Positions 30,656 through 40,702 of a DNA stretch of 64,000 nucleotides are shown piece by piece (the stretch's first letter is position 1; each line of letters opens with the position of its first letter). Position numbers and translations under genes: made by a program. The stretch covers positions 30,618-94,617 of the forward strand of contig CAZCFM010000001.1 in NCBI GenBank assembly GCA_964497855.1, given 5' to 3'. This stretch comes from an uncultured Verrucomicrobiota bacterium (lineage in GTDB: Bacteria > Verrucomicrobiota > Kiritimatiellia > SS1-B-03-39 > UBA6053). The notes beneath the pieces are model-generated. The model was not told where the DNA came from. It made no database searches and saw only the letters and a list, made by a program, of their open reading frames with translations.

Positions 30656-30686
30656 CCACAAAGCCCGGTTCCCCCGGGCTTTGTGG
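30656..30686 (+). terminator. strong stem-loop after sdhB (13-bp perfect stem, 5-nt loop), no clear U-tract
   Basis: CCACAAAGCCCGG-ttccc-CCGGGCTTTGTGG, 22 nt after the sdhB stop and 20 nt before the next ATG. Confidence 0.5.
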
Positions 30687-30705: not shown

Positions 30706-31479
30706 ATGCCCTCCCAAAAACCTTTCAACGGCCGCCGCGCCGCCCTCAGCCTCACCTACGACGACACGCTCGACTGTCATCTCGATCTCGTCGCCCCCGC
30801 GTTGGAATCCCGTGGATTCCGTGGCACCTTCTACACTCCCGTCAACGACACCCTGCTGCGGCGCATGGATCAATGGTCCGAGACATCCCGCCGCGGCCAT
30901 GAACTGGGCAATCACACCCTCTTCCACCCCTGCCGCTCCTACGGCGGTGCCACCTGGATTCAACCCTGGCGCGATCTCAAAACCTACGATCTCGCCCGCT
31001 GGGAGGCGGAAGTCGATCTCGCCAACCTCGTCCTCAACCGCATCGAAGGCCGATCCGACCGCAGCTACGGCAACACCTGCCACAACAATTTCATTGGACC
31101 CGATGACGCGCCGCTCTGCCTCGACGCCCACATGCTCCCCCGTTTCGTCGCCGCCCGCGGCACCAAACGCGATGTGGACGAAAGCATCGATCCCCGCAAC
31201 CTGACTCCCGGCAATCTCGGCACCCTCGGCGGCGACGGCCTCTCGCCCGACGCCATGAAACAGCTCGTCGACATGGCCGTCGCGCGTGGACACTGGATTA
31301 TCCTCACCTTCCACCATGTTGGTCCCGTGGAACGCCGCCTCACCATCGCCGAAACCACCCACAACGCCCTCCTCGACCACTGCGCCTCCCTCCACAACGA
31401 CCTCTGGGTAGCCCCCGTACGCGACATCATCGCCACCTGTCCGGGCAAGCTCCCGCCCAGGTCCGAGACTCCCGCCTGA
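30706..31479 (+). CDS. polysaccharide deacetylase (NodB-homology, CE4-like) family protein
   Basis: AALSLTYDDTLDCHLD...FRGTFY...GHELGNHTLFH pattern (Asp pair plus His-His metal motif). Start at MPSQKPF (ATG 30706); the upstream part of listed ORF 30127..31479 overlaps sdhB out of frame. Confidence 0.8.
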   Translation: MPSQKPFNGRRAALSLTYDDTLDCHLDLVAPALESRGFRGTFYTPVNDTLLRRMDQWSETSRRGHELGNHTLFHPCRSYGGATWIQPWRDLKTYDLARWEAEVDLANLVLNRIEGRSDRSYGNTCHNNFIGPDDAPLCLDAHMLPRFVAARGTKRDVDESIDPRNLTPGNLGTLGGDGLSPDAMKQLVDMAVARGHWIILTFHHVGPVERRLTIAETTHNALLDHCASLHNDLWVAPVRDIIATCPGKLPPRSETPA

Positions 31480-31597
31480 TCATCGGACGCCAAGCCGCCC
31501 GGAAAACAACGTCTATTTTCACGCGTCCCGCACTTGGCAGTGCTTCCATTCTGTGCTTAAAAGCAAGCATGCAGAACGAGTTGCCGGGAACTGTATC

Positions 31598-34330
31598 ATG
31601 AACGCAGTTGAAATCGAAGAGGCGGTATCCGCCCTGGCGGAGCTTCCCTTTGATGCGGAAACCTTTCCCTACGCGTTTTTGGAGGCGTTCGGGAACAAGA
31701 CCACCACCCTGAAGCGGCTGCAAAGCGGGACCAGCAATCAGTCGGACCTGCCGGGCGGGGTTTTGCAGCGCAACAACATCCACATCACGACGTGTGCGGC
31801 GGGCGAGGTAGCCACGACCCTGAACTCCCTGCGGGAAAGCCCCGCCACCGCTAAACAGAAGGCCAAGTTCATTCTGGCCACCGACGGCGAAAGCTTCGAG
31901 GCCGAGGATCTGGCCGGCGGCGAAACCGTGGCCTGCGCCTACAGGGATTTCCCCGACCACTTCGGTTTTTTTCTGCCCCTGGCCGGGATCAGCACCGTCA
32001 AACAGATCCGTGAAAACGCCTTCGACATCAAGGCCACCAGCCGCCTGAACCGCCTGTACCTGGAACTGATCAAAGACAATCCCGAGTGGGGAAAAGAGGC
32101 GCGGCGGCACGACATGAACCACTTCATGGCCCGCCTGATTTTCTGCTTTTTCGCGGAAGACACCGATATTTTTACCGGCGGCTGCCTCTTCACCGACACC
32201 GTGGAGCAGATGAGCGCGCGGGACGCCTCCAACACCCACGAGGTGATCTCGGAAATCTTCCGGTCCATGGCCACCGCCATCGGGGAGCGCAAAAGCGCTG
32301 GACTCCCCCGCTGGGCGGACGCCTTTCCCTACGTGAACGGCGGACTGTTCTCCGGGTCGTCCGAGGTGCCGCGCTTCAGTAAGTTTGCGAAAGCCCACCT
32401 TCGCCAGATCGGAACCCTCGACTGGACCAAAATCAACCCCGACATCTTCGGGTCCATGATTCAGGCCGTGGCCGACGACGAGGAGCGCGGGGCCCTGGGC
32501 ATGCACTACACCAGCGTGCCGAACATCCTCAAGGTGCTAAACCCCCTCTTTCTCGACGATTTGCGCGAAAAACTGGAGGAGGCGGGCGACAACAAGCGTA
32601 AACTCCTCAACCTCCGCAACCGCATGGCCCGCATCCGGGTCTTCGACCCCGCCTGCGGCTCCGGGAACTTTCTGGTCATCGCCTACAAGGAAATGCGGGC
32701 CATCGAGGCGGAGATCAACCGACGGCGCGGGGAAACCAACCGCCGCAGCGACCTGCCGCTCACCAACTACCGCGGCATCGAACTGCGCGATTTCTCGGCG
32801 GAGATCGCCCGACTCGCCCTCGTCATCGCCCAATACCAGTGCGACGTGCTTTACCTCGGCCAGAAAGAGGCCCTCGCCGTCTTTCTCCCCCTTGAAGCCA
32901 ACAACTGGATCACCTGCGGCAACGCCCTCCGCCTCGACTGGCTCAGCATCTGCCCCCCCACCGGCACCGGCGTCAAACTCCGCTCCGACGATCTCTTCGA
33001 CACCCCCCACGACCAGGCTGAAATCGACTTCCAAAACGAGGGAGGGGAGACCTATATCTGCGGGAATCCGCCTTTTATTGGCACGAGGAAACAAACCGAT
33101 GAACAAAAAAACGATTTAAAATCTGTATTTGCATCACTCACTGAGCACTGGAAAAATGTCGATTATGTAGGCGCTTGGCTCGTTAAAGCAGCTGAATATA
33201 ATAAAAATACATTTGCGCCATTTGCATTCGTTGCCACAAATAGTTTATGTCAAGGCCAGCAGGTTTCAATTACGTGGCGCATTCTCTTGAAAATGGGCTT
33301 TCGCATACGCTTTGCCCATACTTCCTTCATTTGGTCGAACTTAGCTGCAAACAAGGCGGGTGTGACCGTGGTTGTTATAGGTATAGACAACCGATGTACG
33401 GGAAACCGTATCATTTTCGATTCTGACAATATTCGGGTTGTTGAAAACATTAACCCTTATCTAACAGAGCACAAAGTTGACTACATACCTTCCAGTAGAA
33501 GACCCATTTTCATTAATGAATATATGGATTATGGTGTTTACTATTCAAAATCATCAGGGTTGATTTTACGACCAGACGAAGCATCTTCTTTAATAAGAAA
33601 CGGACTAGATAATTCATTAATAAAGAAATTTTTAGGCTCCTCGGAATTTATTAACGGAAAAGAACGATATTGCCTTTGGGTACAGGATACCGACCTTCAT
33701 CGAATTACCAAAATTCCAGAAGTCTTGGCCCGCATTGAATCAGTCAGGAAGGATCGACTAGATACCCGAGATAAATCCGTAAATAAACTCGCTTCAAAAC
33801 CCCACCAATTCCGTGAAATTAAGGGTGAAGAAAATGTAAAAATTCTAATTCCGATCGTTTCATCGGAAAACAGATCCCATCTGCCTGTCGGAATGGCTAA
33901 TGGCAGCGTAATTCCTACAAATAAGGCGTTTTTCATTGGAAATCCACCGTTATGGTGCCTCGCTATACTTTCTTCTCGCATCCACCTTACATGGATTGCC
34001 ACAGTCTGTGGACGAATGAGAACGGATTTCTCCTACTCCAACACCCTTGGCTGGAACACCTTTCCGGTGCCGTCGTTGACGGAGCAGAACAAGCGGGATT
34101 TGACGCGCTGTGCGGAGGAGATTCTGCTGGTGCGGGAGGCGCATTTTCCGGCGACCATCGCGGACCTGTACGACCCGGAGGCGATGCCCGACGATCTGCG
34201 GGCGGCGCACGAGCGCAACGACGAGACCCTGGAGCGCATCTACATCGGCCGCCGCTTCAAAAACGACACCGAGCGCCTCGAAAAGCTTTTTGAGATGTAC
34301 ACGAAGATGACGGGGGGAAAACATGTCTGA
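31598..34330 (+). CDS. MmeI/YeeA-family N6-adenine DNA methyltransferase (Type IIL-like architecture, N-terminal nuclease motif not recognisable)
   Basis: RLIFCFFAEDTDIF, FPYVNGGLF, INPDIFGSMIQAV, GMHYTSVPNILKVLNPLFLD, FDPACGSGNFLVIAY (SAM motif I), ICGNPPFIG (motif IV). C-terminal FPATIADLYDP..MPDDLRAAHERND resembles the MmeI C-terminal domain. Start at MNAVEIEE (ATG 31598). Confidence 0.88.
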   Translation: MNAVEIEEAVSALAELPFDAETFPYAFLEAFGNKTTTLKRLQSGTSNQSDLPGGVLQRNNIHITTCAAGEVATTLNSLRESPATAKQKAKFILATDGESFEAEDLAGGETVACAYRDFPDHFGFFLPLAGISTVKQIRENAFDIKATSRLNRLYLELIKDNPEWGKEARRHDMNHFMARLIFCFFAEDTDIFTGGCLFTDTVEQMSARDASNTHEVISEIFRSMATAIGERKSAGLPRWADAFPYVNGGLFSGSSEVPRFSKFAKAHLRQIGTLDWTKINPDIFGSMIQAVADDEERGALGMHYTSVPNILKVLNPLFLDDLREKLEEAGDNKRKLLNLRNRMARIRVFDPACGSGNFLVIAYKEMRAIEAEINRRRGETNRRSDLPLTNYRGIELRDFSAEIARLALVIAQYQCDVLYLGQKEALAVFLPLEANNWITCGNALRLDWLSICPPTGTGVKLRSDDLFDTPHDQAEIDFQNEGGETYICGNPPFIGTRKQTDEQKNDLKSVFASLTEHWKNVDYVGAWLVKAAEYNKNTFAPFAFVATNSLCQGQQVSITWRILLKMGFRIRFAHTSFIWSNLAANKAGVTVVVIGIDNRCTGNRIIFDSDNIRVVENINPYLTEHKVDYIPSSRRPIFINEYMDYGVYYSKSSGLILRPDEASSLIRNGLDNSLIKKFLGSSEFINGKERYCLWVQDTDLHRITKIPEVLARIESVRKDRLDTRDKSVNKLASKPHQFREIKGEENVKILIPIVSSENRSHLPVGMANGSVIPTNKAFFIGNPPLWCLAILSSRIHLTWIATVCGRMRTDFSYSNTLGWNTFPVPSLTEQNKRDLTRCAEEILLVREAHFPATIADLYDPEAMPDDLRAAHERNDETLERIYIGRRFKNDTERLEKLFEMYTKMTGGKHV
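33065..34030 (+). other. AT-rich mosaic segment inside the methyltransferase gene, covering the region after motif IV (presumed target-recognition domain)
   Basis: Composition switches abruptly just after the GNPPF codons (about 33060) to visibly AT-rich codons (aaa, att, aat, tta), and switches back near 34030 (..SYSNTLGWNTFPVP). The reading frame stays intact. Confidence 0.7.
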
Positions 34331-34503
34331 CGTGATTTTGTACACCACCGAGGATGGGAAGACACGCATCGACCTGCGTGTGGAGGGCGGGACCGTCTGG
34401 CTTCATCAGTTGGAGATTGCGGAGTTGTTCCAGACTTCCAAGCAAAACGTCAGTCTGCATGTTCGTAATATATTGAAAGATGGTGAGTTAGACGAATCGG
34501 CAA

Positions 34504-34524
34504 CTGTCAAGAAATCCTTGACAG
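34504..34524. repeat. palindrome CTGTCAAG-aaatc-CTTGACAG (copy 1 of a direct pair)
   Basis: 8-bp arms. Related copy 53 nt downstream. Located exactly where RhuM homology breaks off. Confidence 0.6.
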
Positions 34525-34558
34525 TTCAGATACCTCGCTTCCGAATGTTATCACCAGT

Positions 34559-34579
34559 TGTCAAGGAATCCTTGACAAC
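34559..34579. repeat. palindrome TTGTCAAGGA-a-TCCTTGACAA (copy 2)
   Basis: Perfect 10-bp arms around a single central base. Shares the TGTCAAG.AATCCTTGACA core with copy 1. Confidence 0.6.
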
Positions 34580-34633
34580 TCATCGCTCCAATTCCCGTTG
34601 GACTCGTTTGGAAATATATTGCAAGGATGCCGC

Positions 34634-36040
34634 ATGACTACCACTCAGCAAGTTGATGTATGGCTTCAAGTGAGAAAAGAGACCCGTACCCTTGAGTTTA
34701 AGGAGGCGAAAACGCAGTACGATTTCCGAAAACTCTGCAAGTATTGCGTGGCCATTGCGAATGAATCCGGAGGATTTTTGGTGCTGGGCGTGACCAACAA
34801 TCCTCCCCGGAAGGTGGTGGGCAGCGCGGCGTTCCAAAATACGGAGGAAACAGCTTCCAAACTGTTTCAGACACTTGGGTTCCGTGTTGACGTTGAGGAG
34901 GTGGATCATCCGGATGGACGGGTGGTGGTATTCCGGCTCCCGGGTCGCCCCCGGGGTACCGCCTATTCTTTTGAGGGCGCGTATTGGATGCGGGTAGGAG
35001 AGGAACTCCAGCCGATGTCGGAAGATCGGCTACGTGCTATTTTCACGGAAGGTCAGCCCGATTGGCTGTCGCTTCCGGCTGCTCCTCCGGTTTCCGCCCA
35101 GGAGGTTGTTCAGTTTTTGGATACTCAGAGTTTTTTTGATCTGCTGAAACTGCCGTATCCCGCCGATCAGCGGGGCGTGCTCGGACGGCTAGTGGAGGAG
35201 CGCTTGATTGCAGAGGCAACGGGTGGGTATGAGATCAGCAATTTGGCGGCAGTATTACTGGCAAAAGATTTAAATGCCTTTGAGGGCCTTTCCCGCAAAG
35301 CGTCACGGGTGGTGGTGTATCGTGGAGAGGACAAGCTCCACACCAAAACGGATAAGACAGGCGCCAAGGGATACGCGGTTGGATTCCAAGGCCTGGTGGA
35401 ATATGTGATGGGGATGCTTCCTCAGAATGAGGTGATCGAGAAGGCTCTGCGGGTGGAGAGTAAATTACTGCCGGAAGTGGTCATTCGCGAGCTTTTGGCC
35501 AATGCCCTGATTCATCAGGACTTCGAATGTGGCGGGGGATGCCCGATGGTGGAGATTTATTCAAACCGGGTGGAAATCAGCAATCCCGGCGAACCTATCG
35601 TGCCGGTGGAGCGGTTTATTGATGGCTATCAGTCGCGTAATGAGCGACTAGCGGATTTGATGCGTCGATTTGGGATTTGCGAGGAAAAAAGCAGCGGGAT
35701 CGACCAGGTAATTGGAGCGGCGGAAGCGCATCAGCTCCCGGCTCCGGATTTTCAGGTGGGATATCAACGGACGATTGTGATCTTGTATGGCCCACGTCCT
35801 TTCCGTCTCATGGACCGGAGTGACCGTATTCGCGCCTGCTATCAGCATTGCGCTCTGCAATGGGTACTTCGGCAACAGATGACGAATCAATCCCTTCGAG
35901 AACGATTCGGTGTGTCAGATAGCAGTACAAATTCTGTCTCACAGATTATCACCGCCACCATCGAGGCGGGTTTAATCAAACCCAACCCCAGCATAGCTCC
36001 CTCCCGAAAGTACGCCCGCTACCTGCCCATTTGGGCATGA
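34634..36040 (+). CDS. Schlafen/AlbA_2 domain plus HATPase_c_4 'putative DNA-binding ATPase/transcriptional regulator' (COG2865-like)
   Basis: N-terminal LEFKEAKTQYDFRKLCKYCVAIANESGGFLVLGV (AlbA_2/divergent AAA-4). Middle VIRELLANALIHQDF..GGCPMVEIYSNRVEISNPG (HATPase_c_4). C-terminal wHTH-like tail. Start MTTTQQ (ATG 34634). Confidence 0.8.
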   Translation: MTTTQQVDVWLQVRKETRTLEFKEAKTQYDFRKLCKYCVAIANESGGFLVLGVTNNPPRKVVGSAAFQNTEETASKLFQTLGFRVDVEEVDHPDGRVVVFRLPGRPRGTAYSFEGAYWMRVGEELQPMSEDRLRAIFTEGQPDWLSLPAAPPVSAQEVVQFLDTQSFFDLLKLPYPADQRGVLGRLVEERLIAEATGGYEISNLAAVLLAKDLNAFEGLSRKASRVVVYRGEDKLHTKTDKTGAKGYAVGFQGLVEYVMGMLPQNEVIEKALRVESKLLPEVVIRELLANALIHQDFECGGGCPMVEIYSNRVEISNPGEPIVPVERFIDGYQSRNERLADLMRRFGICEEKSSGIDQVIGAAEAHQLPAPDFQVGYQRTIVILYGPRPFRLMDRSDRIRACYQHCALQWVLRQQMTNQSLRERFGVSDSSTNSVSQIITATIEAGLIKPNPSIAPSRKYARYLPIWA

Positions 36041-36188
36041 ATCTTATTTCATCGCAACCGGCATTTCAGGGAAAGCAAAAACCTAACATCTTGCAAATGA
36101 ACACTTTCTTATTTTGTTTTCAACGGTACTTCCCGACGGGAGACCTGTCGGTTGACTCAATCCCGCCCCTGTGTAAAGAGAGCATTTT

Positions 36189-38246
36189 ATGACCCATTCC
36201 CTGAAAACATTTCCTTCTGTGTCGGTGACCTACGCGGGCGACGGCGGGTCGGTCCGCGCCAATGAGCTGGGGATGCGGCCGATGCAGGAGCGGGCGTATC
36301 AGAAGCGGGGGGAGCAATACCTGCTGATCAAGTCGCCGCCGGCTTCGGGGAAAAGCCGGGCACTGATGTTCATCGCTCTGGACAAGCTGGAGAATCAGGG
36401 TCTGAAAAAGGCCCTGATCGTGGTGCCGGAGAAGACCATCGGGGCCAGTTTTGCGGATGAACCGCTTTCGCGTTTCGGTTTCTGGGCGGATTGGAGGGTG
36501 GAACCGCGCTGGAATCTCTGCAACGCTCCCGGCGAAGATGGAGGCAAGGTGGAGTCGGTGCGGGTGTTTCTGGAGAGCGGGGATCGGGTGATGGTGTGCA
36601 CACACGCGACCTTCCGTTTCGCGGTGGACCGCTTCGGCGTGGGAGCCTTCGATGACTGTTTGATCGCGGTGGACGAGTTTCACCATGTGTCCTCGAATCC
36701 CGATAACAAGCTGGGAACGCACCTGGCGGAGTTTATTTCGCGCGGGAAAACCCATATCGTGGCGATGACGGGATCGTATTTCCGGGGCGACGCCGAGGCG
36801 GTGCTCCATCCCACGGACGAGGCCCGCTTTGAAACGGTGACCTACACCTACTATGAGCAGTTGAGCGGCTATGAGTATCTGAAACAACTGGACATGGGCT
36901 ATTACTTTTATGCGGGAAGCTATGCGGTTGAGATTCTGCAGGTGCTGAATCCGGAGGAGAAAACCATCGTCCACATCCCCAACGTCAACGCCCGCGAAAG
37001 CACCAAGGACAAAATCCGCGAGGTGGAGCACATTCTGGAGGAGCTGGGCGAGTGGCAGGGGGCGGATCCGGCGACCGGATTTCAGTTGGTGAAAACCCGC
37101 GAAGGCCGTCTTTTGAAAATCGCGGATCTTGTGGAGGATGATCCCCGCAAGCGGGACAAGGTGACGGCGGCGCTGAAAGATCCATCGCAGAAGAACAATC
37201 GCGACCATGTGGACATCATCATTGCCCTGGGCATGGCCAAGGAGGGCTTTGACTGGATCTGGTGCGAGCACGCGCTGACGGTCGGGTACCGTTCGAGTTT
37301 GACGGAGATTGTGCAGATCATCGGGCGGGCCACGCGGGACGCGCCGGGCAAAACGCGCTCCCGTTTCACCAATCTGATCGCCGAGCCGGACGCCGCCGAG
37401 GAGGCGGTCACCGAGGCGGTGAACGACACGCTGAAGGCGATTGCGGCCAGCCTGCTGATGGAACAGGTTCTGGCGCCGCGCTTTGAGTTCCGTCCCAAAC
37501 GACCGGAGACCGGGCCGAGTCCGGGATACGATTATGGTCCGGGAGGCTATCAGGCGGAGCGCTGCAATGTGGGTTATGATCCCGCATCCGGCAAAATTCA
37601 GTTGGAACTCAAGGGGCTGGCGGAACCGGCCAGTCCGGAAGCCTCCCGCATTTGCAGGGAGGATCTTACCGAGGTGGTGACGGCTTTTGTGCAGCAGAAA
37701 GGGAATCTGGAGCGGGGGCTCTTTGACGAGGAGCTGGTGCCGGAAGAGCTGACCCAGATTCGCATGGGGAAAATCATCAAAGAGAAATATCCCGAACTGA
37801 CACCCGAGGACCAGGAGGCGGTCAGGCAACACGCGGTGGTGGCGTTGAATGTGATCCAACAGGCGAAAGGGTTCCTGTTTCAGGACAGCAGCTCTCCGCC
37901 GGAGAAAGCGAACACCTCTCTGATTGACGGGGTGAGGCGATTCGCCATGGATGTCCGGGATCTGGACGTGGATTTGATCGACCGCATCAATCCTTTTGGC
38001 GAGGCCTACGCGATTTTAGCGAAATCCATGAACCCGGAGCGGCTGCGGCGTCTGCACGAAATCATCGGGGCCAAACGCGTGAGTCTTTCCTTGGAGGAGT
38101 CCCGGGACTTGGCCAAGCGCGCGTTGCGTTTCAAGCAGGAGCGGGGGCGAGTGCCGTCGATGACGGCGGCGGATCCATGGGAAAGGCGGATGGCGGAGGG
38201 TGTGGCTTATCTGCAACAGAAAGTCCGGGAGCAATCCAATGGCTAA
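36189..38246 (+). CDS. SF2 (DEAD/DEAH-like, ResIII-type) helicase
   Basis: Walker A IKSPPASGKSRAL, DEFH box IAVDEFHHV, MTGSYFRGD (motif III-like), ALGMAKEGFDW and QIIGRATRD (motif VI). About 250 aa C-terminal extension. Confidence 0.85.
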   Translation: MTHSLKTFPSVSVTYAGDGGSVRANELGMRPMQERAYQKRGEQYLLIKSPPASGKSRALMFIALDKLENQGLKKALIVVPEKTIGASFADEPLSRFGFWADWRVEPRWNLCNAPGEDGGKVESVRVFLESGDRVMVCTHATFRFAVDRFGVGAFDDCLIAVDEFHHVSSNPDNKLGTHLAEFISRGKTHIVAMTGSYFRGDAEAVLHPTDEARFETVTYTYYEQLSGYEYLKQLDMGYYFYAGSYAVEILQVLNPEEKTIVHIPNVNARESTKDKIREVEHILEELGEWQGADPATGFQLVKTREGRLLKIADLVEDDPRKRDKVTAALKDPSQKNNRDHVDIIIALGMAKEGFDWIWCEHALTVGYRSSLTEIVQIIGRATRDAPGKTRSRFTNLIAEPDAAEEAVTEAVNDTLKAIAASLLMEQVLAPRFEFRPKRPETGPSPGYDYGPGGYQAERCNVGYDPASGKIQLELKGLAEPASPEASRICREDLTEVVTAFVQQKGNLERGLFDEELVPEELTQIRMGKIIKEKYPELTPEDQEAVRQHAVVALNVIQQAKGFLFQDSSSPPEKANTSLIDGVRRFAMDVRDLDVDLIDRINPFGEAYAILAKSMNPERLRRLHEIIGAKRVSLSLEESRDLAKRALRFKQERGRVPSMTAADPWERRMAEGVAYLQQKVREQSNG

Positions 38247-39435
38247 GAAACAAATCACGGACGAAGATATCGACCTCTTGAATGAGCTGGAGGTGGACAC
38301 CGCACCGGATGCGAAGGATGCTGTTTCCGCGAGAGAACAGCGCATTCTTGCGGGCTTTGAGGAGATTGTGAACTTTGCCAAGGAGCACGGGCGTGTGCCA
38401 CAGCATGGGGAAGACCGGGATATTTTTGAACGGATCTATGCCGTGAGGCTGGATCGTATCCAGGCTTCGGGGGAGTGCCGGGAAATCCTGAAAGACAAAG
38501 ATATCCTTGGGCTGCTCTCGGAAAATCACGGAGGGGCAAGCCTGGTCAGGGAGGTCCCGGAAGAGGATGTGGCGATATTAGAGGCCTTGGGCGTGGAGAA
38601 AGCGCCGGGAAGCGATATTGCCCAATTGGCGTATGTGCGATCCCGCGAGGAAATCCAGTCGGCGGAAGAGGTTGCCCAAAGATTGCCCTGCAAGGATTTC
38701 GACCGGTTTCAACCCGTCTTCAAAATCGTTCAGACCGACCTGGACTGCGGAACACGGCAAACGGTGAAATATCAGGACAATGCGGAAGTGAAGGTCGGAG
38801 ATTTTTTCATTCTGGATGGACAGAAAGTGCTGGTGGCCGCGATGGGGGCACCCACGGTTTCCACCTATGGTCGTCCCAACCCCCGCTTGCGCGTTATTTA
38901 TGATAATGGGACTGAAAGTGATCTGCTGTTGCGCTCCCTGCAGAGGGCACTCAACAAAGACAAGGCCAGCAGAAGAATCGCCGAAGCTGGATACGGGCCA
39001 TTGTTTGCGGGTGAATCATCAGACGGAGACCTCGACGCGGGAACGATTTACGTTCTGCGCAGCCTTTCCAATCATCCTTTTATCCAGCAAAACCGGGACG
39101 TGATCCATAAAATCGGGGTCACGGGCGGGAGTGTCGAAAACCGAATCGCCCACGCGGAAAAGGATCCAACGTTTCTACTCGCGCCCGTGGAAGTTGTCGG
39201 ATCGTATAAACTGGCGAATCTCAACCGTTCCAAGCTGGAGAACCTTTTGCACAAATTCCTCTCCCCTGCCCGGCTCGACATGGAGCTGCAGGACCGTTTC
39301 GGTTTTGATGTGAAGCCCAGAGAGTGGTTTCTCGTTCCACTCCCGCTGATTGAGGAAACCGTCCAGCGCATCCTGGACGGAAGCCTCAGCAGGTGCCGCT
39401 ATGACCCAACGCTGGCACAATTGGTTCCACAATGA
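38239..39435 (+). CDS. T5orf172 / GIY-YIG-like nuclease domain protein
   Basis: C-terminal GTIYVLRSLSNHPF...VIHKIGVTGGSVENRIAHAEKD...LHKFL...REWFLVPLPLIEETVQRI is the T5orf172 (MUG113) pattern. The ATG overlaps the helicase stop by 8 nt (ATGGCTAA). Confidence 0.8.
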   Translation: MAKKQITDEDIDLLNELEVDTAPDAKDAVSAREQRILAGFEEIVNFAKEHGRVPQHGEDRDIFERIYAVRLDRIQASGECREILKDKDILGLLSENHGGASLVREVPEEDVAILEALGVEKAPGSDIAQLAYVRSREEIQSAEEVAQRLPCKDFDRFQPVFKIVQTDLDCGTRQTVKYQDNAEVKVGDFFILDGQKVLVAAMGAPTVSTYGRPNPRLRVIYDNGTESDLLLRSLQRALNKDKASRRIAEAGYGPLFAGESSDGDLDAGTIYVLRSLSNHPFIQQNRDVIHKIGVTGGSVENRIAHAEKDPTFLLAPVEVVGSYKLANLNRSKLENLLHKFLSPARLDMELQDRFGFDVKPREWFLVPLPLIEETVQRILDGSLSRCRYDPTLAQLVPQ

Positions 39436-39545
39436 GCGAAAACCCAGCGACCCAACCCACCTGGCGCATCCATGACTGCGGGCGATTGCCGAAGGGTGTT
39501 TGGGTGGTGCGTGAGCCTCAAAATCTTTCGCCGTGGGTGTCGGAC

Positions 39546-39749
39546 GGGGTTGAAACCCCCAGGTCCATGAATCGTCGCTACGCGACGCGAGGAAAAGACG
39601 GGCACGGGGTCCGTGGTTTGAAAACCACGGCTATTCGTGGGACTGTCGCTACGCGACAAACGGCATCCCCTCAGGGAGCCCGCATGGATTTGTGTGCCAT
39701 GGATGGCACACAAATCGAATAGCGTGCAACACATGGCCACAAATCGAAT
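39546..39749. repeat. cluster of hairpins and short direct repeats in a ~570-bp non-coding tract at the island's right edge
   Basis: GGGGT-tgaa-ACCCC (39546-39559). CCGTGGTT-tgaa-AACCACGG (39611-39630). GTCGCTACGCGAC twice (39574-39586, 39645-39657). 12-bp perfect stem GATTTGTGTGCC-atggat-GGCACACAAATC (39687-39716). CACAAATCGAAT twice (39709-39720, 39738-39749). Confidence 0.65.
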
Positions 39750-40009
39750 CGGACCCGGTTTTCGGAACGTTCAGCAGCCACCCAAACAGATCTTGATTCC
39801 GCAGGGATGCGAAGCAAATTTCATGCATGGTCGCGCCCTTTGAAACCGATGACGATGCTGTCGCGCTGGAGAAGCTGAATCAGCAGCTCCCGCAGATGAC
39901 GGAAGCCTACAACCCGCAGCCGATTCCGGACATTGGCGGTTTTACGCCGAACAGCCTGTTCCGCTTGGGGCTTCGCCACAGGCAGGAATATCTGTGTCAA
40001 AAGGAGTGC

Positions 40010-40702
40010 TTACTCCTGAACCTGGCCGTCGGCGATGCGGACGGTGCGGGAGCAGCGGGCGGCGAGGGCGGGGTCGTGCGTGACGATCACGAGGGTGCGG
40101 TGGCGTTCGGCACTGAGGCGGAAGAGGTCGTCGAGTACACGGCTGCCGGTTTCGGCGTCGAGATTGCCGGTGGGTTCGTCGGCGAGCAGGATGTCGGGGT
40201 CGTTGGCGAGGGCGCGGGCGATGGCGAGGCGTTGCTGCTCGCCACCGCTGAGTTCGACGGGCCGGTGGCCGAGGCGGTGGCCGAGACCGACGTTTTCGAG
40301 CTGCAATCGAACATGGGCGACGGCGGCGGCATCGGGCGCGCCCCAGCGGCGCAGGGCGCGGGCGGGCATGAGGGCGTTTTCGAACACGCTGAGGTCGGGC
40401 AGCAGATGGTAGTTCTGGAAAACGATGCCCATGCGACGGGCGCGGAAGCCGGCGCGGCGCGATTCACCCCAGCGGTGGATGGGCTGATCGTCCACACGCA
40501 ATTCGCCGCTGTCCGGGGTGTCGAGTCCGCCCAGCAAATGCAGGAGAGTGCTTTTGCCACTTCCGCTCGCGCCCATGATGCAGAGGCTCTCGCCGGCCTG
40601 CACGGCGAGGGTTGCGCCTTTGAGCACTTCGATCACGCCGTGGGGCATACGGTAGGATTTGCGCAGACCGATGGCCTGCAAAACGAAAGGGGCGTCAGTC
40701 AT
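40010..40702 (-). CDS. lolD: lipoprotein-releasing ABC transporter ATP-binding protein
   Basis: Walker A GASGSGKST, signature LSGGEQQRLAIARAL, Walker B ILLADEPTGNLD. Start MTDAPF (ATG 40700-40702) overlaps the stop of the upstream FtsX-type permease gene. Confidence 0.9.
   Translation of the reverse strand: MTDAPFVLQAIGLRKSYRMPHGVIEVLKGATLAVQAGESLCIMGASGSGKSTLLHLLGGLDTPDSGELRVDDQPIHRWGESRRAGFRARRMGIVFQNYHLLPDLSVFENALMPARALRRWGAPDAAAVAHVRLQLENVGLGHRLGHRPVELSGGEQQRLAIARALANDPDILLADEPTGNLDAETGSRVLDDLFRLSAERHRTLVIVTHDPALAARCSRTVRIADGQVQE

Follow-up and report, generated by a model that had tools for sequence, protein, structure and literature searches.

A RhuM stub, paired coding hairpins and a Schlafen-ATPase gene in the variable guest slot of a YeeABC-type cassette from an uncultured Verrucomicrobiota bacterium

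MmeI homologues of the YeeA group lack the PD-ExK nuclease motif and are encoded beside a helicase gene and a GIY-YIG-like gene (Morgan et al. 2009, PMC2731913), and in the DnmA/YeeA-YeeB-YeeC clusters of the literature the three genes directly flank one another (PMC2731913; Fernandez et al. 2023, PMC9973331). Type I restriction-modification (R-M) operons are known to harbour tightly packed guest genes of the PrrC/RloC, RhuM, Fic/DOC and DUF1016 families (Anantharaman et al. 2013, PMC3710099; Milman et al. 2023, PMC9881135), and the catalytic motif of prokaryotic Schlafens has been defined as Ex4(E/D)xK (bioRxiv 2025, PMC12330615). The subject of this report is a cassette of the DnmA/YeeA type in 64,000 nucleotides of DNA from an uncultured Verrucomicrobiota bacterium (GenBank assembly GCA_964497855.1, contig CAZCFM010000001.1, positions 30,618 to 94,617 of the forward strand), the whole of which is referred to below as the window. 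The three families of the described clusters recur in the window with order and orientation unchanged, but the methyltransferase and helicase genes are separated by one to several unrelated genes, as they are in 47 of 75 relatives. In the window these unrelated genes include a truncated RhuM open reading frame (ORF), hereafter the stub, and a Schlafen-ATPase gene.

Between the methyltransferase and the helicase, 1.86 kb of DNA fill a variable guest slot, in which a RhuM gene was probably broken and a second hairpin and a Schlafen-ATPase gene joined on, with overlapping reading frames (Table 1). The three-gene cassette, the Type I guests and the bacterial Schlafens are known; the frequent occupation of a slot in the YeeABC-type cassette, the recurrence of a RhuM stub in it and a covarying coding hairpin of RhuM genes, 10-12 bp long, variable in sequence, conserved in structure and fixed in codon position, together with the tandem arrays that it forms, are apparently new. 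Guest genes within Type I R-M operons were reportedly noted by Makarova et al. in 2011. Beyond the shared guest families and the tight packing, the likeness to such operons extends to where the guests lie, downstream of the specificity or methylase gene and ahead of the genes for translocase or nuclease, and to RhuM hairpin stubs, which are present in the true Type I loci L095, L176, L177 and L178. The window differs in that a three-gene cassette of the MmeI-like kind takes the place of a Type I system as host, and a predicted Schlafen-type RNase that of the PrrC anticodon nuclease, whose activation is linked to EcoprrI, as guest.

Table 1. Coordinates of the cassette, its guest slot and the hairpins, counted from the first letter of the window
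Feature	Position	Strand	Basis and remarks
MmeI-family methyltransferase, DnmA/YeeA type, 910 aa	31598..34330	+	Pfam, PADLOC, 5HR4 alignment; 5' side of guest slot
Low-GC patch, target recognition domain	33000..33990	+	GC 0.37-0.44 vs ~0.6 around (composition profile)
RhuM stub ORF, 104 codons	34323..34637	+	Residues 1-55 N-terminal beta-beta-beta-alpha-alpha module; 60-69 and 78-87 hairpin-encoded; tail unrelated to RhuM
RhuM coding hairpin, type B	34502..34526		AACTGTCAAGAAATCCTTGACAGTT, one A-C mismatch, encodes ATVKKSLTVQ; covariance model R1 29.0 bits, E 5e-4
RhuM-type hairpin, type A	34556..34580		AGTTGTCAAGGAATCCTTGACAACT, perfect palindrome, 12-bp arms, encodes VVKESLTT; R1 30.2 bits, E 2e-4
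Schlafen RNase domain + GHKL (His-kinase-like) ATPase, 468 aa	34634..36040	+	Pfam; C-terminal helix-turn-helix probable
Bridging ORF, 51 codons	36037..36192	+	ATGA with Schlafen stop and ATGA with helicase start; fills spacer exactly
YeeB-type DEAD/ResIII helicase, 685 aa	36189..38246	+	Pfam
YeeC-type T5orf172/MUG113 (GIY-YIG-like) protein, 398 aa	38239..39435	+	Pfam; 8-nt overlap with helicase gene
Strain-specific ORF, 96 codons	39432..39722	+	ATGA with T5orf172; perfect palindrome with 14-bp arms at its end (39687-39716)

The variability of the slot emerges from a survey of 80 loci anchored on the helicase, in 75 of which the gap between methyltransferase and helicase was measured. It is shorter than 100 nt in 27 loci, including all those from Firmicutes, 392 nt in one, and longer than 400 nt, reaching about 2600 nt, in the other 47. 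Full-length RhuM is the insert in eight loci (L026, L052, L065, L071, L078, L082, L084 and L088), where it adjoins the helicase gene, Schlafen-ATPase in only six of the 75 and DUF1016/YhcG nuclease in five; the RhuM stub is found in three. Further inserts encode AIPR, GmrSD_N, a NucS-like protein, DUF4351, DUF559, Fic, AbiJ_NTD4, and nucleotidyltransferase and antitoxin proteins, and several insert families have no Pfam match. Schlafen-ATPase guests other than the window's own are those of L023 (71% identity), L073, L031, L038 and L064. In L029 (10001-17857) the order is permuted to helicase, T5orf172, methyltransferase and Schlafen-ATPase, and the guest still follows the methyltransferase; it is therefore with the 3' end of that gene that the slot goes. 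An earlier note on this DNA, made from its letters, had taken the RhuM remnant and the Schlafen-ATPase for nested guests and not core genes, drawn from the same families as those in Type I R-M operons, and the survey agrees with it: the inserts vary at one and the same position, are absent from the 27 cassettes in which methyltransferase and helicase are directly adjacent, and include RhuM, DUF1016, Fic, AIPR, GmrSD and toxin-antitoxin genes, and the ATPase is not an invariable component of the 75 related cassettes.

The stub, on its homology, is a fragment of a RhuM gene and not a member of the family in the functional sense. As the earlier note had recognized, it begins with a clean RhuM N-terminus: over residues 1-70 it shares 65-78% identity with the start of PF13310 Virulence_RhuM proteins, and residues 2-77 match the PADLOC PDC-S05 models with E values down to 5e-31. 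This identity comes from PADLOC and from homologues, since the stub has no Pfam match even at E 10 and none in NCBIfam. All 29 invariant or nearly invariant N-domain positions of the family are retained. The homology ends at about residue 70, against a span of about 250 residues for the PF13310 domain, and no remnant of the RhuM C-terminus rises above noise anywhere in 34300-36250; the RhuM gene was therefore truncated and not split. The beta-beta-beta-alpha-alpha topology of the N-terminal module comes from an AlphaFold2 model with a pLDDT score of only 46, too low for a fold search, in which the tail is disordered. A RhuM stub overlapping the methyltransferase stop also occurs in two independent cassettes, L010, where it is followed by DUF1016 and AbiJ_NTD4 genes, and L013, where a DUF559 gene follows. 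Because full-length RhuM adjoins the helicase in other loci, the loci with stubs resemble methyltransferase-RhuM-helicase cassettes that have had the part beyond about codon 70 of RhuM replaced. In L023 the Schlafen orthologue is preceded by the stub of another guest family; the DNA homology between the window and L023 ends within the Schlafen coding sequence, and no edges of a transferred segment were found.

The RhuM homology of the stub does not end at a random point: immediately before its end lies a palindrome that occupies codons 60-69 of RhuM genes and that, in the window's relatives, comes in two covarying types: type A, CAGTTGTCAAGGA-A-TCCTTGACAACTG, encoding SVVKESLTTA, and type B, AACTGTCAAGGA-A-TCCTTGACAGTT, encoding ATVKESLTVQ. 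A further 80 RhuM loci were gathered by peptide patterns of the C-terminal domain, a selection that is blind to the hairpin, and 49 of 55 distinct RhuM genes have their palindrome centred on the third base of codon 64. The stems are diverse in sequence (GTCAAGGA, ATCCGGAA, TGTAAGAA, GTTCGGAA, ACCGAGAA, GTTTCCAT and others), and the encoded peptide is equally variable. Base pairs were counted in a codon-anchored, ungapped alignment of 34 distinct sequences and compared with 500 shuffles, none of which reached the observed value in any of three measures: 90.2% of cells are paired (67.6% in shuffles), 110 cells are changed on both sides (33 in shuffles), and the covariation score is 0.704 (0.254 in shuffles). 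When the partners were slid by 1-3 columns, 20-41% of cells paired. Compensatory changes affect 10 of the 12 pairs; eight stem positions are Watson-Crick in all 34 sequences, the two nearest the centre are loose, and beyond 12-13 bp the pairing ends sharply. A test by minimum-free-energy rank is weak, as the hairpin ranks first within its gene in just 12 of 55 cases, and the covariation test is the informative one. G-U (G-T) pairs are as common in the stem as A-C mismatches (6 vs 6), and therefore do not indicate at which level, RNA or DNA, the structure would act. No curated model of Rfam 15 matches at E <= 1 in 31000-40500, and no RhuM paper appeared among the 15 top-ranked full-text literature matches for RhuM with hairpin, palindrome or stem-loop, a loose query that does not exclude one.

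A second guest family has a comparable element. DUF1016/YhcG guests carry a coding palindrome of their own at IVQQAVGQLPW (CAATTGTCCAACAGGCTGTTGGACAATTG), with compensatory differences between genes, an observation that covers five genes: L010 (8607-8635), L080 (9055-9087), L052 (8091-8234), and L050 and L069 at the same codons. The L052 gene is intact and contains four in-frame tandem variants of the hairpin, which amount to an insertion of 39 amino acids. A scan of viral contigs for DUF1016 genes yielded one locus.

The RhuM hairpins are found in extra copies at the junctions where RhuM genes have been rearranged. The covariance model R1, built from the 34 RhuM genes and searched against 1.5 Mb of loci, finds copies confined to RhuM genes or RhuM relics, with exactly two sites in the window, those of Table 1, the type A hairpin lying in frame 54 nt (18 codons) after type B. 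Ordinary intact RhuM genes have one hairpin, and all rearranged stubs have one of type A and one of type B, in frame: B then A in L010, with the same spacing as in the window, A then B in L013, and three further double-hairpin stubs in Type I R-M or defence islands beside Fic, DUF6602, CD-NTase, HsdM, HsdS and SIR2 genes. In L095 (4750-4875) a 92-codon ORF directly after hsdS, which shares ATGA both with hsdS and with the following P-loop gene (MSKKIIIIAGPNGAG...), contains a tandem, in-frame array of three hairpins, each of another type, and has no RhuM N-domain; L061 likewise has a hairpin-only relic without the N-domain, in the slot of a cassette of the window's type. All seven hairpin-to-hairpin spacings (54, 54, 42, 45, 48, 69 and 108) are multiples of three. 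The density of perfect palindromes whose arms measure 10 bp or more is 0.30/kb in slots and 0.02/kb in methyltransferase genes, and 240 kb of helicase and T5orf172 genes contain none. No third hairpin flanking the guest was found in the window, and the guest is therefore not a repeat-bounded cassette. When metagenomes were scanned for an exact copy of the double palindrome, only one locus emerged, with a pattern that was too strict and a collection that does not contain the window's own population. A promoter arising from TTGACA within the hairpins was considered and rejected, as the promoter scan gave no plus-strand promoter using this hexamer.

The guests are tied into the cassette by overlapping reading frames. 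The chain of overlaps from methyltransferase through RhuM remnant to ATPase that the earlier note had described is confirmed, and is longer than was claimed. The methyltransferase end overlaps the stub start by 8 nt (34323 vs 34330), the stub stop TGA at 34635-34637 shares bases with the Schlafen ATG at 34634 in an ATGA, and start/stop overlaps continue through all seven ORFs of the operon: Schlafen and 51-codon ORF (ATGA), 51-codon ORF and helicase (ATGA), helicase and T5orf172 (8 nt), and T5orf172 and 96-codon ORF (ATGA). The stub frame is uninterrupted from the methyltransferase stop to the Schlafen start, and the 51-codon frame, which is annotated as a gene on contigs L006 and L008, bridges the next gap, so that ribosomes could run without a break all the way from methyltransferase to T5orf172. 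The guests of most related slots stop no more than about 15 nt away from where the helicase gene begins, and five of seven RhuM stubs or hairpin relics elsewhere terminate in an overlap with the next gene. The suggestion that the stub persists as a coupling leader thus stands in part: the run of seven overlapping ORFs and the overlaps of the relics speak for it, but the stub is no simple leftover, for it recurs with other guests, keeps its N-domain residues intact and has two conserved hairpins, and in relics the hairpin outlasts the N-domain. The cassette is present on at least nine metagenome contigs, equal in gene content and order in all nine and 99.7-100% identical to the window in seven of the nine when compared at the DNA level; the arrangement is therefore real and no artefact of assembly.

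The 468-residue guest protein is an AlbA_2/Schlafen-HATPase_c_4 fusion, as had been supposed from its translation, with Pfam matches to SLFN_AlbA_2 at residues 16-128 (E 8e-14) and to HATPase_c_4 at residues 303-383 (E 1e-18). The motif E16-x4-E21-x-K23 is invariant in five slot homologues, and so is the GHKL N-box (R285 E286 .. N290 .. H294 D296). The protein has a weak match to 3LMM in the PDB, and winged-helix Pfam matches in the longer homologues of L031 and L064 suggest that it probably ends in a helix-turn-helix. As a separate observation, the Schlafen reading frame of L029 is interrupted by a stop codon. In the published survey of prokaryotic Schlafens (pSlfn; PMC12330615) the fusion to a His-kinase-like ATPase, which the window protein shares together with the motif, is, with its helix-turn-helix form, the commonest architecture (34% + 19%). 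The members proven protective there, however, have the DUF262-Slfn and RorSlfn5 architectures, and the window gene sits within the operon of another system and does not stand alone. With its catalytic motif intact, the protein is most likely a separately triggered RNA-cleaving effector that rides on the transcription and mobility of the cassette, and by analogy with PrrC and the published bacterial Schlafens it may serve in second-line defence or abortive infection.

These observations are probably accounted for by the following history. The slot would first have held a full-length RhuM gene, as eight related cassettes do today; the gene would have been broken directly after its conserved coding hairpin, and a second RhuM-type hairpin and the gene for a Schlafen RNase fused to a His-kinase-like ATPase would have been joined on next. 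Breakage or template switching at the hairpins may drive the exchange of guests, with survival of those variants in which ribosomes still reach the genes for helicase and nuclease, and the Schlafen protein would act as an independently triggered RNase. The gene identities, the variable slot, the recurring stub, the covarying hairpin with its place at rearrangement junctions and the chain of overlaps are observed; the order of events, the breaking and joining at the hairpin, a real translational coupling and any anti-phage role are inferred from them.

Several points weigh against this history. Crossing-over within the 17-nt core shared by the two hairpins would leave one hybrid hairpin and not two complete ones. 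The hairpin-only relics of L095 and L061 suggest that the hairpins themselves are what is kept, and the undecayed N-domain of the stub is unexpected for a mere scar and would fit a working small protein. Given a compatible frame, the 148-nt spacer is open in 6% of shuffles and the stub tail in 19%, chances that are not negligible, and the two bridging frames are in this respect suggestive and not compelling. The surveyed loci are the closest relatives of the window's helicase and not a random sample, and the guest history, the coupling and the function of the Schlafen protein have all been read from sequence. As for defence, the B. subtilis dnmA-yeeB-yeeC cluster confers no phage protection (PMC9973331); homologues in Vibrio crassostreae are reportedly protective (PMC9973331).

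The main rival, which is compatible with the history above and not exclusive of it, holds that the hairpins are a functional unit in cis for whose sake the stub is kept, either as a barrier to mRNA decay or a processing site, or as a DNA structure-specific site of breaking and joining. In its RNA version the hairpins would fix how much methyltransferase is made relative to the toxin and nuclease encoded downstream, a role that REP hairpins have between malE and malF. We consider this quite possible, if short of probable. The strong covariation at a fixed position, the relics without N-domain in L095 (three hairpin types in tandem after hsdS) and in the L061 slot, the density of perfect palindromes in slots, the separate covarying coding hairpin of the unrelated DUF1016 guests, fourfold in L052, and the good folding of the hairpin region as RNA (z = -4.1) all argue for a function. 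A translational operator is made less likely by the variable spacing, about 44 to 311 nt, between the last hairpin and the start codon that follows, and the G-U count offers nothing in favour of a sense-strand RNA; there is no recombinase or integrase gene nearby and no third hairpin flanking the guest, and spacings that are all multiples of three imply that the hairpins arose or were kept inside translated frames. A bolder form of the same idea, in which the RhuM and DUF1016 coding hairpins together are a functional module that defines the guest slot of R-M operons, as a break-and-join site or a ratio-setting RNA, and the stubs are maintained adaptors and not decaying pseudogenes, is offered tentatively and with some doubt. 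If it were true, stubs such as that of the window would serve the exchange of toxin genes while keeping the toxins coupled to the host operon.

Two described classes of hairpin-associated element invite comparison at this point. Integron cassettes with attC hairpins also form variable arrays of promoterless, co-oriented genes near hairpin-forming sites, but no integrase gene was seen in the locus, no hairpin lies beyond the far side of the guest, and the hairpin sequence, judged by eye only, departs from the attC R'/R'' consensus. REP/BIME elements and REPIN doublets resemble the RhuM hairpins as short stable palindromes inside operons that form pairs of two types and are tied to rearrangement. 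They differ in being extragenic and present in many copies per genome, whereas the RhuM hairpins lie in frame within the coding sequence, at one fixed codon of one gene family, with only two copies in the window and neither a RAYT transposase nor a GTAG/CGTC tag seen. Apart from the RhuM hairpins, GC-rich palindromic repeats of REP-like appearance (e.g. CCCCTCTCCCCGAAGCGGGGAGAGGGG, translating as ..PLRGEGxGVRG..) recur several times in and around the slots of L013 (7819-8390 and 8750-8776) and L061 (420-1300).

That the stub is instead a working small protein, a stand-alone RhuM N-domain that binds nucleic acid and regulates the guest or the cassette, for instance as a repressor or as an antitoxin-like partner of the Schlafen protein, strikes us as unlikely. 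It would explain why every family-invariant residue is kept, why the start is intact and both neighbours are tightly coupled, and why the stub stands in the same place in three cassettes; short ORFs consisting of the N-domain only are common, many PDC-S05 models having just 55-116 positions, and residues 23-56 show weak HTH_20 and MarR_2 similarities. The guests that follow the stubs (Schlafen, DUF1016 with AbiJ, DUF559) are, however, unrelated to one another, which leaves no fixed partner; the Schlafen orthologues of L023, L073, L031, L038 and L064 have no RhuM stub; the tail is unconserved and predicted to be disordered, in a model of low pLDDT; and relics exist with hairpins and without the N-domain.

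Distinctly unlikely, in our judgement, is that the palindromes are without function, their arms being equalized by intrastrand template switching at replication, with covariation, tandem copies and breakpoints as by-products in a weakly constrained linker. A stem of nearly pure Watson-Crick pairs with very few wobbles, a highly variable encoded peptide and the existence of diversified tandem copies are what such a process would leave. It does not readily explain a centre held at one codon position in 49 of 55 genes that have 47-100% protein identity to the reference RhuM and come from many phyla, nor the sharp end of the stem at 12-13 bp, nor the survival of the hairpin beyond its flanking gene in relics, nor an equivalent element in a second family, DUF1016, of the same genomic lifestyle. 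Finally, a five-gene system with the Schlafen-ATPase and the stub as integral conserved parts, which their tight, co-oriented packing with the core and their identity on every contig of the window's population might suggest, is hardly tenable, being contradicted by the survey of 75 loci, in which 27 cassettes are free of inserts, the Schlafen-ATPase lies in the slot of six and after the permuted methyltransferase of one (L029), and the stub occurs in three.

The remaining parts of the cassette conform to the described type. The host of the guest slot is a dnmA-yeeB-yeeC-type, restriction-like and horizontally spread trio of methyltransferase, YeeB helicase and YeeC T5orf172 nuclease-like protein. 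The methyltransferase start given by gene callers is the ATG at 31598, the longest ORF beginning with GTG at 31553. The protein carries all five Pfam domains MmeI_N, MmeI_hel, MmeI_Mtase, MmeI_TRD and MmeI_C, scores 901 bits against PADLOC REase_MTase_IIG and aligns over residues 88-906 to the MmeI structure 5HR4 (E 2e-137). Residues 1-87 give no alignment to MmeI by phmmer, in accord with the account of the YeeA group by Morgan et al. (PMC2731913), yet Pfam MmeI_N matches the protein, which may or may not lack the PD-ExK motif. The low-GC patch of the target recognition domain points to the swapping of specificity between strains, contig L004 (1-530), from one metagenome population, having another version of this domain (62% amino acid identity), with a switch at about 34000 and near-identical DNA downstream. 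In six other loci (L017, L018, L032, L044, L067 and L071) the tblastn matches of the methyltransferase span 3.5-5 kb and not 2.7 kb, which suggests insertions in the gene or extra fragments of it. Helicases with 72-77% identity to that of the window are encoded in at least 582 loci of Cyanobacteria, Proteobacteria, Firmicutes, Planctomycetes, Verrucomicrobia and Acidobacteria. The 96-codon ORF is probably the 3' edge of the cassette, which is flanked by housekeeping genes: fumarate reductase/succinate dehydrogenase and polysaccharide deacetylase upstream, an ABC transporter, lysyl-tRNA synthetase and HU downstream. A GC-rich, perfectly palindromic hairpin with 13-bp arms at 30656-30686, after the upstream iron-sulfur subunit gene, is probably a terminator.

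Guest toxins in Type I operons have long been noted and have gone unexplained, and they are now found also in a different and very widespread restriction-like cassette. The analysis predicts that the commonest bacterial Schlafen architecture may often be deployed as a passenger of methyltransferase genes. A hairpin at a fixed codon of a toxin gene family, doubled or tripled exactly where RhuM genes were broken and rejoined to new guests, makes the entry and exit of guests in restriction operons approachable by experiment.

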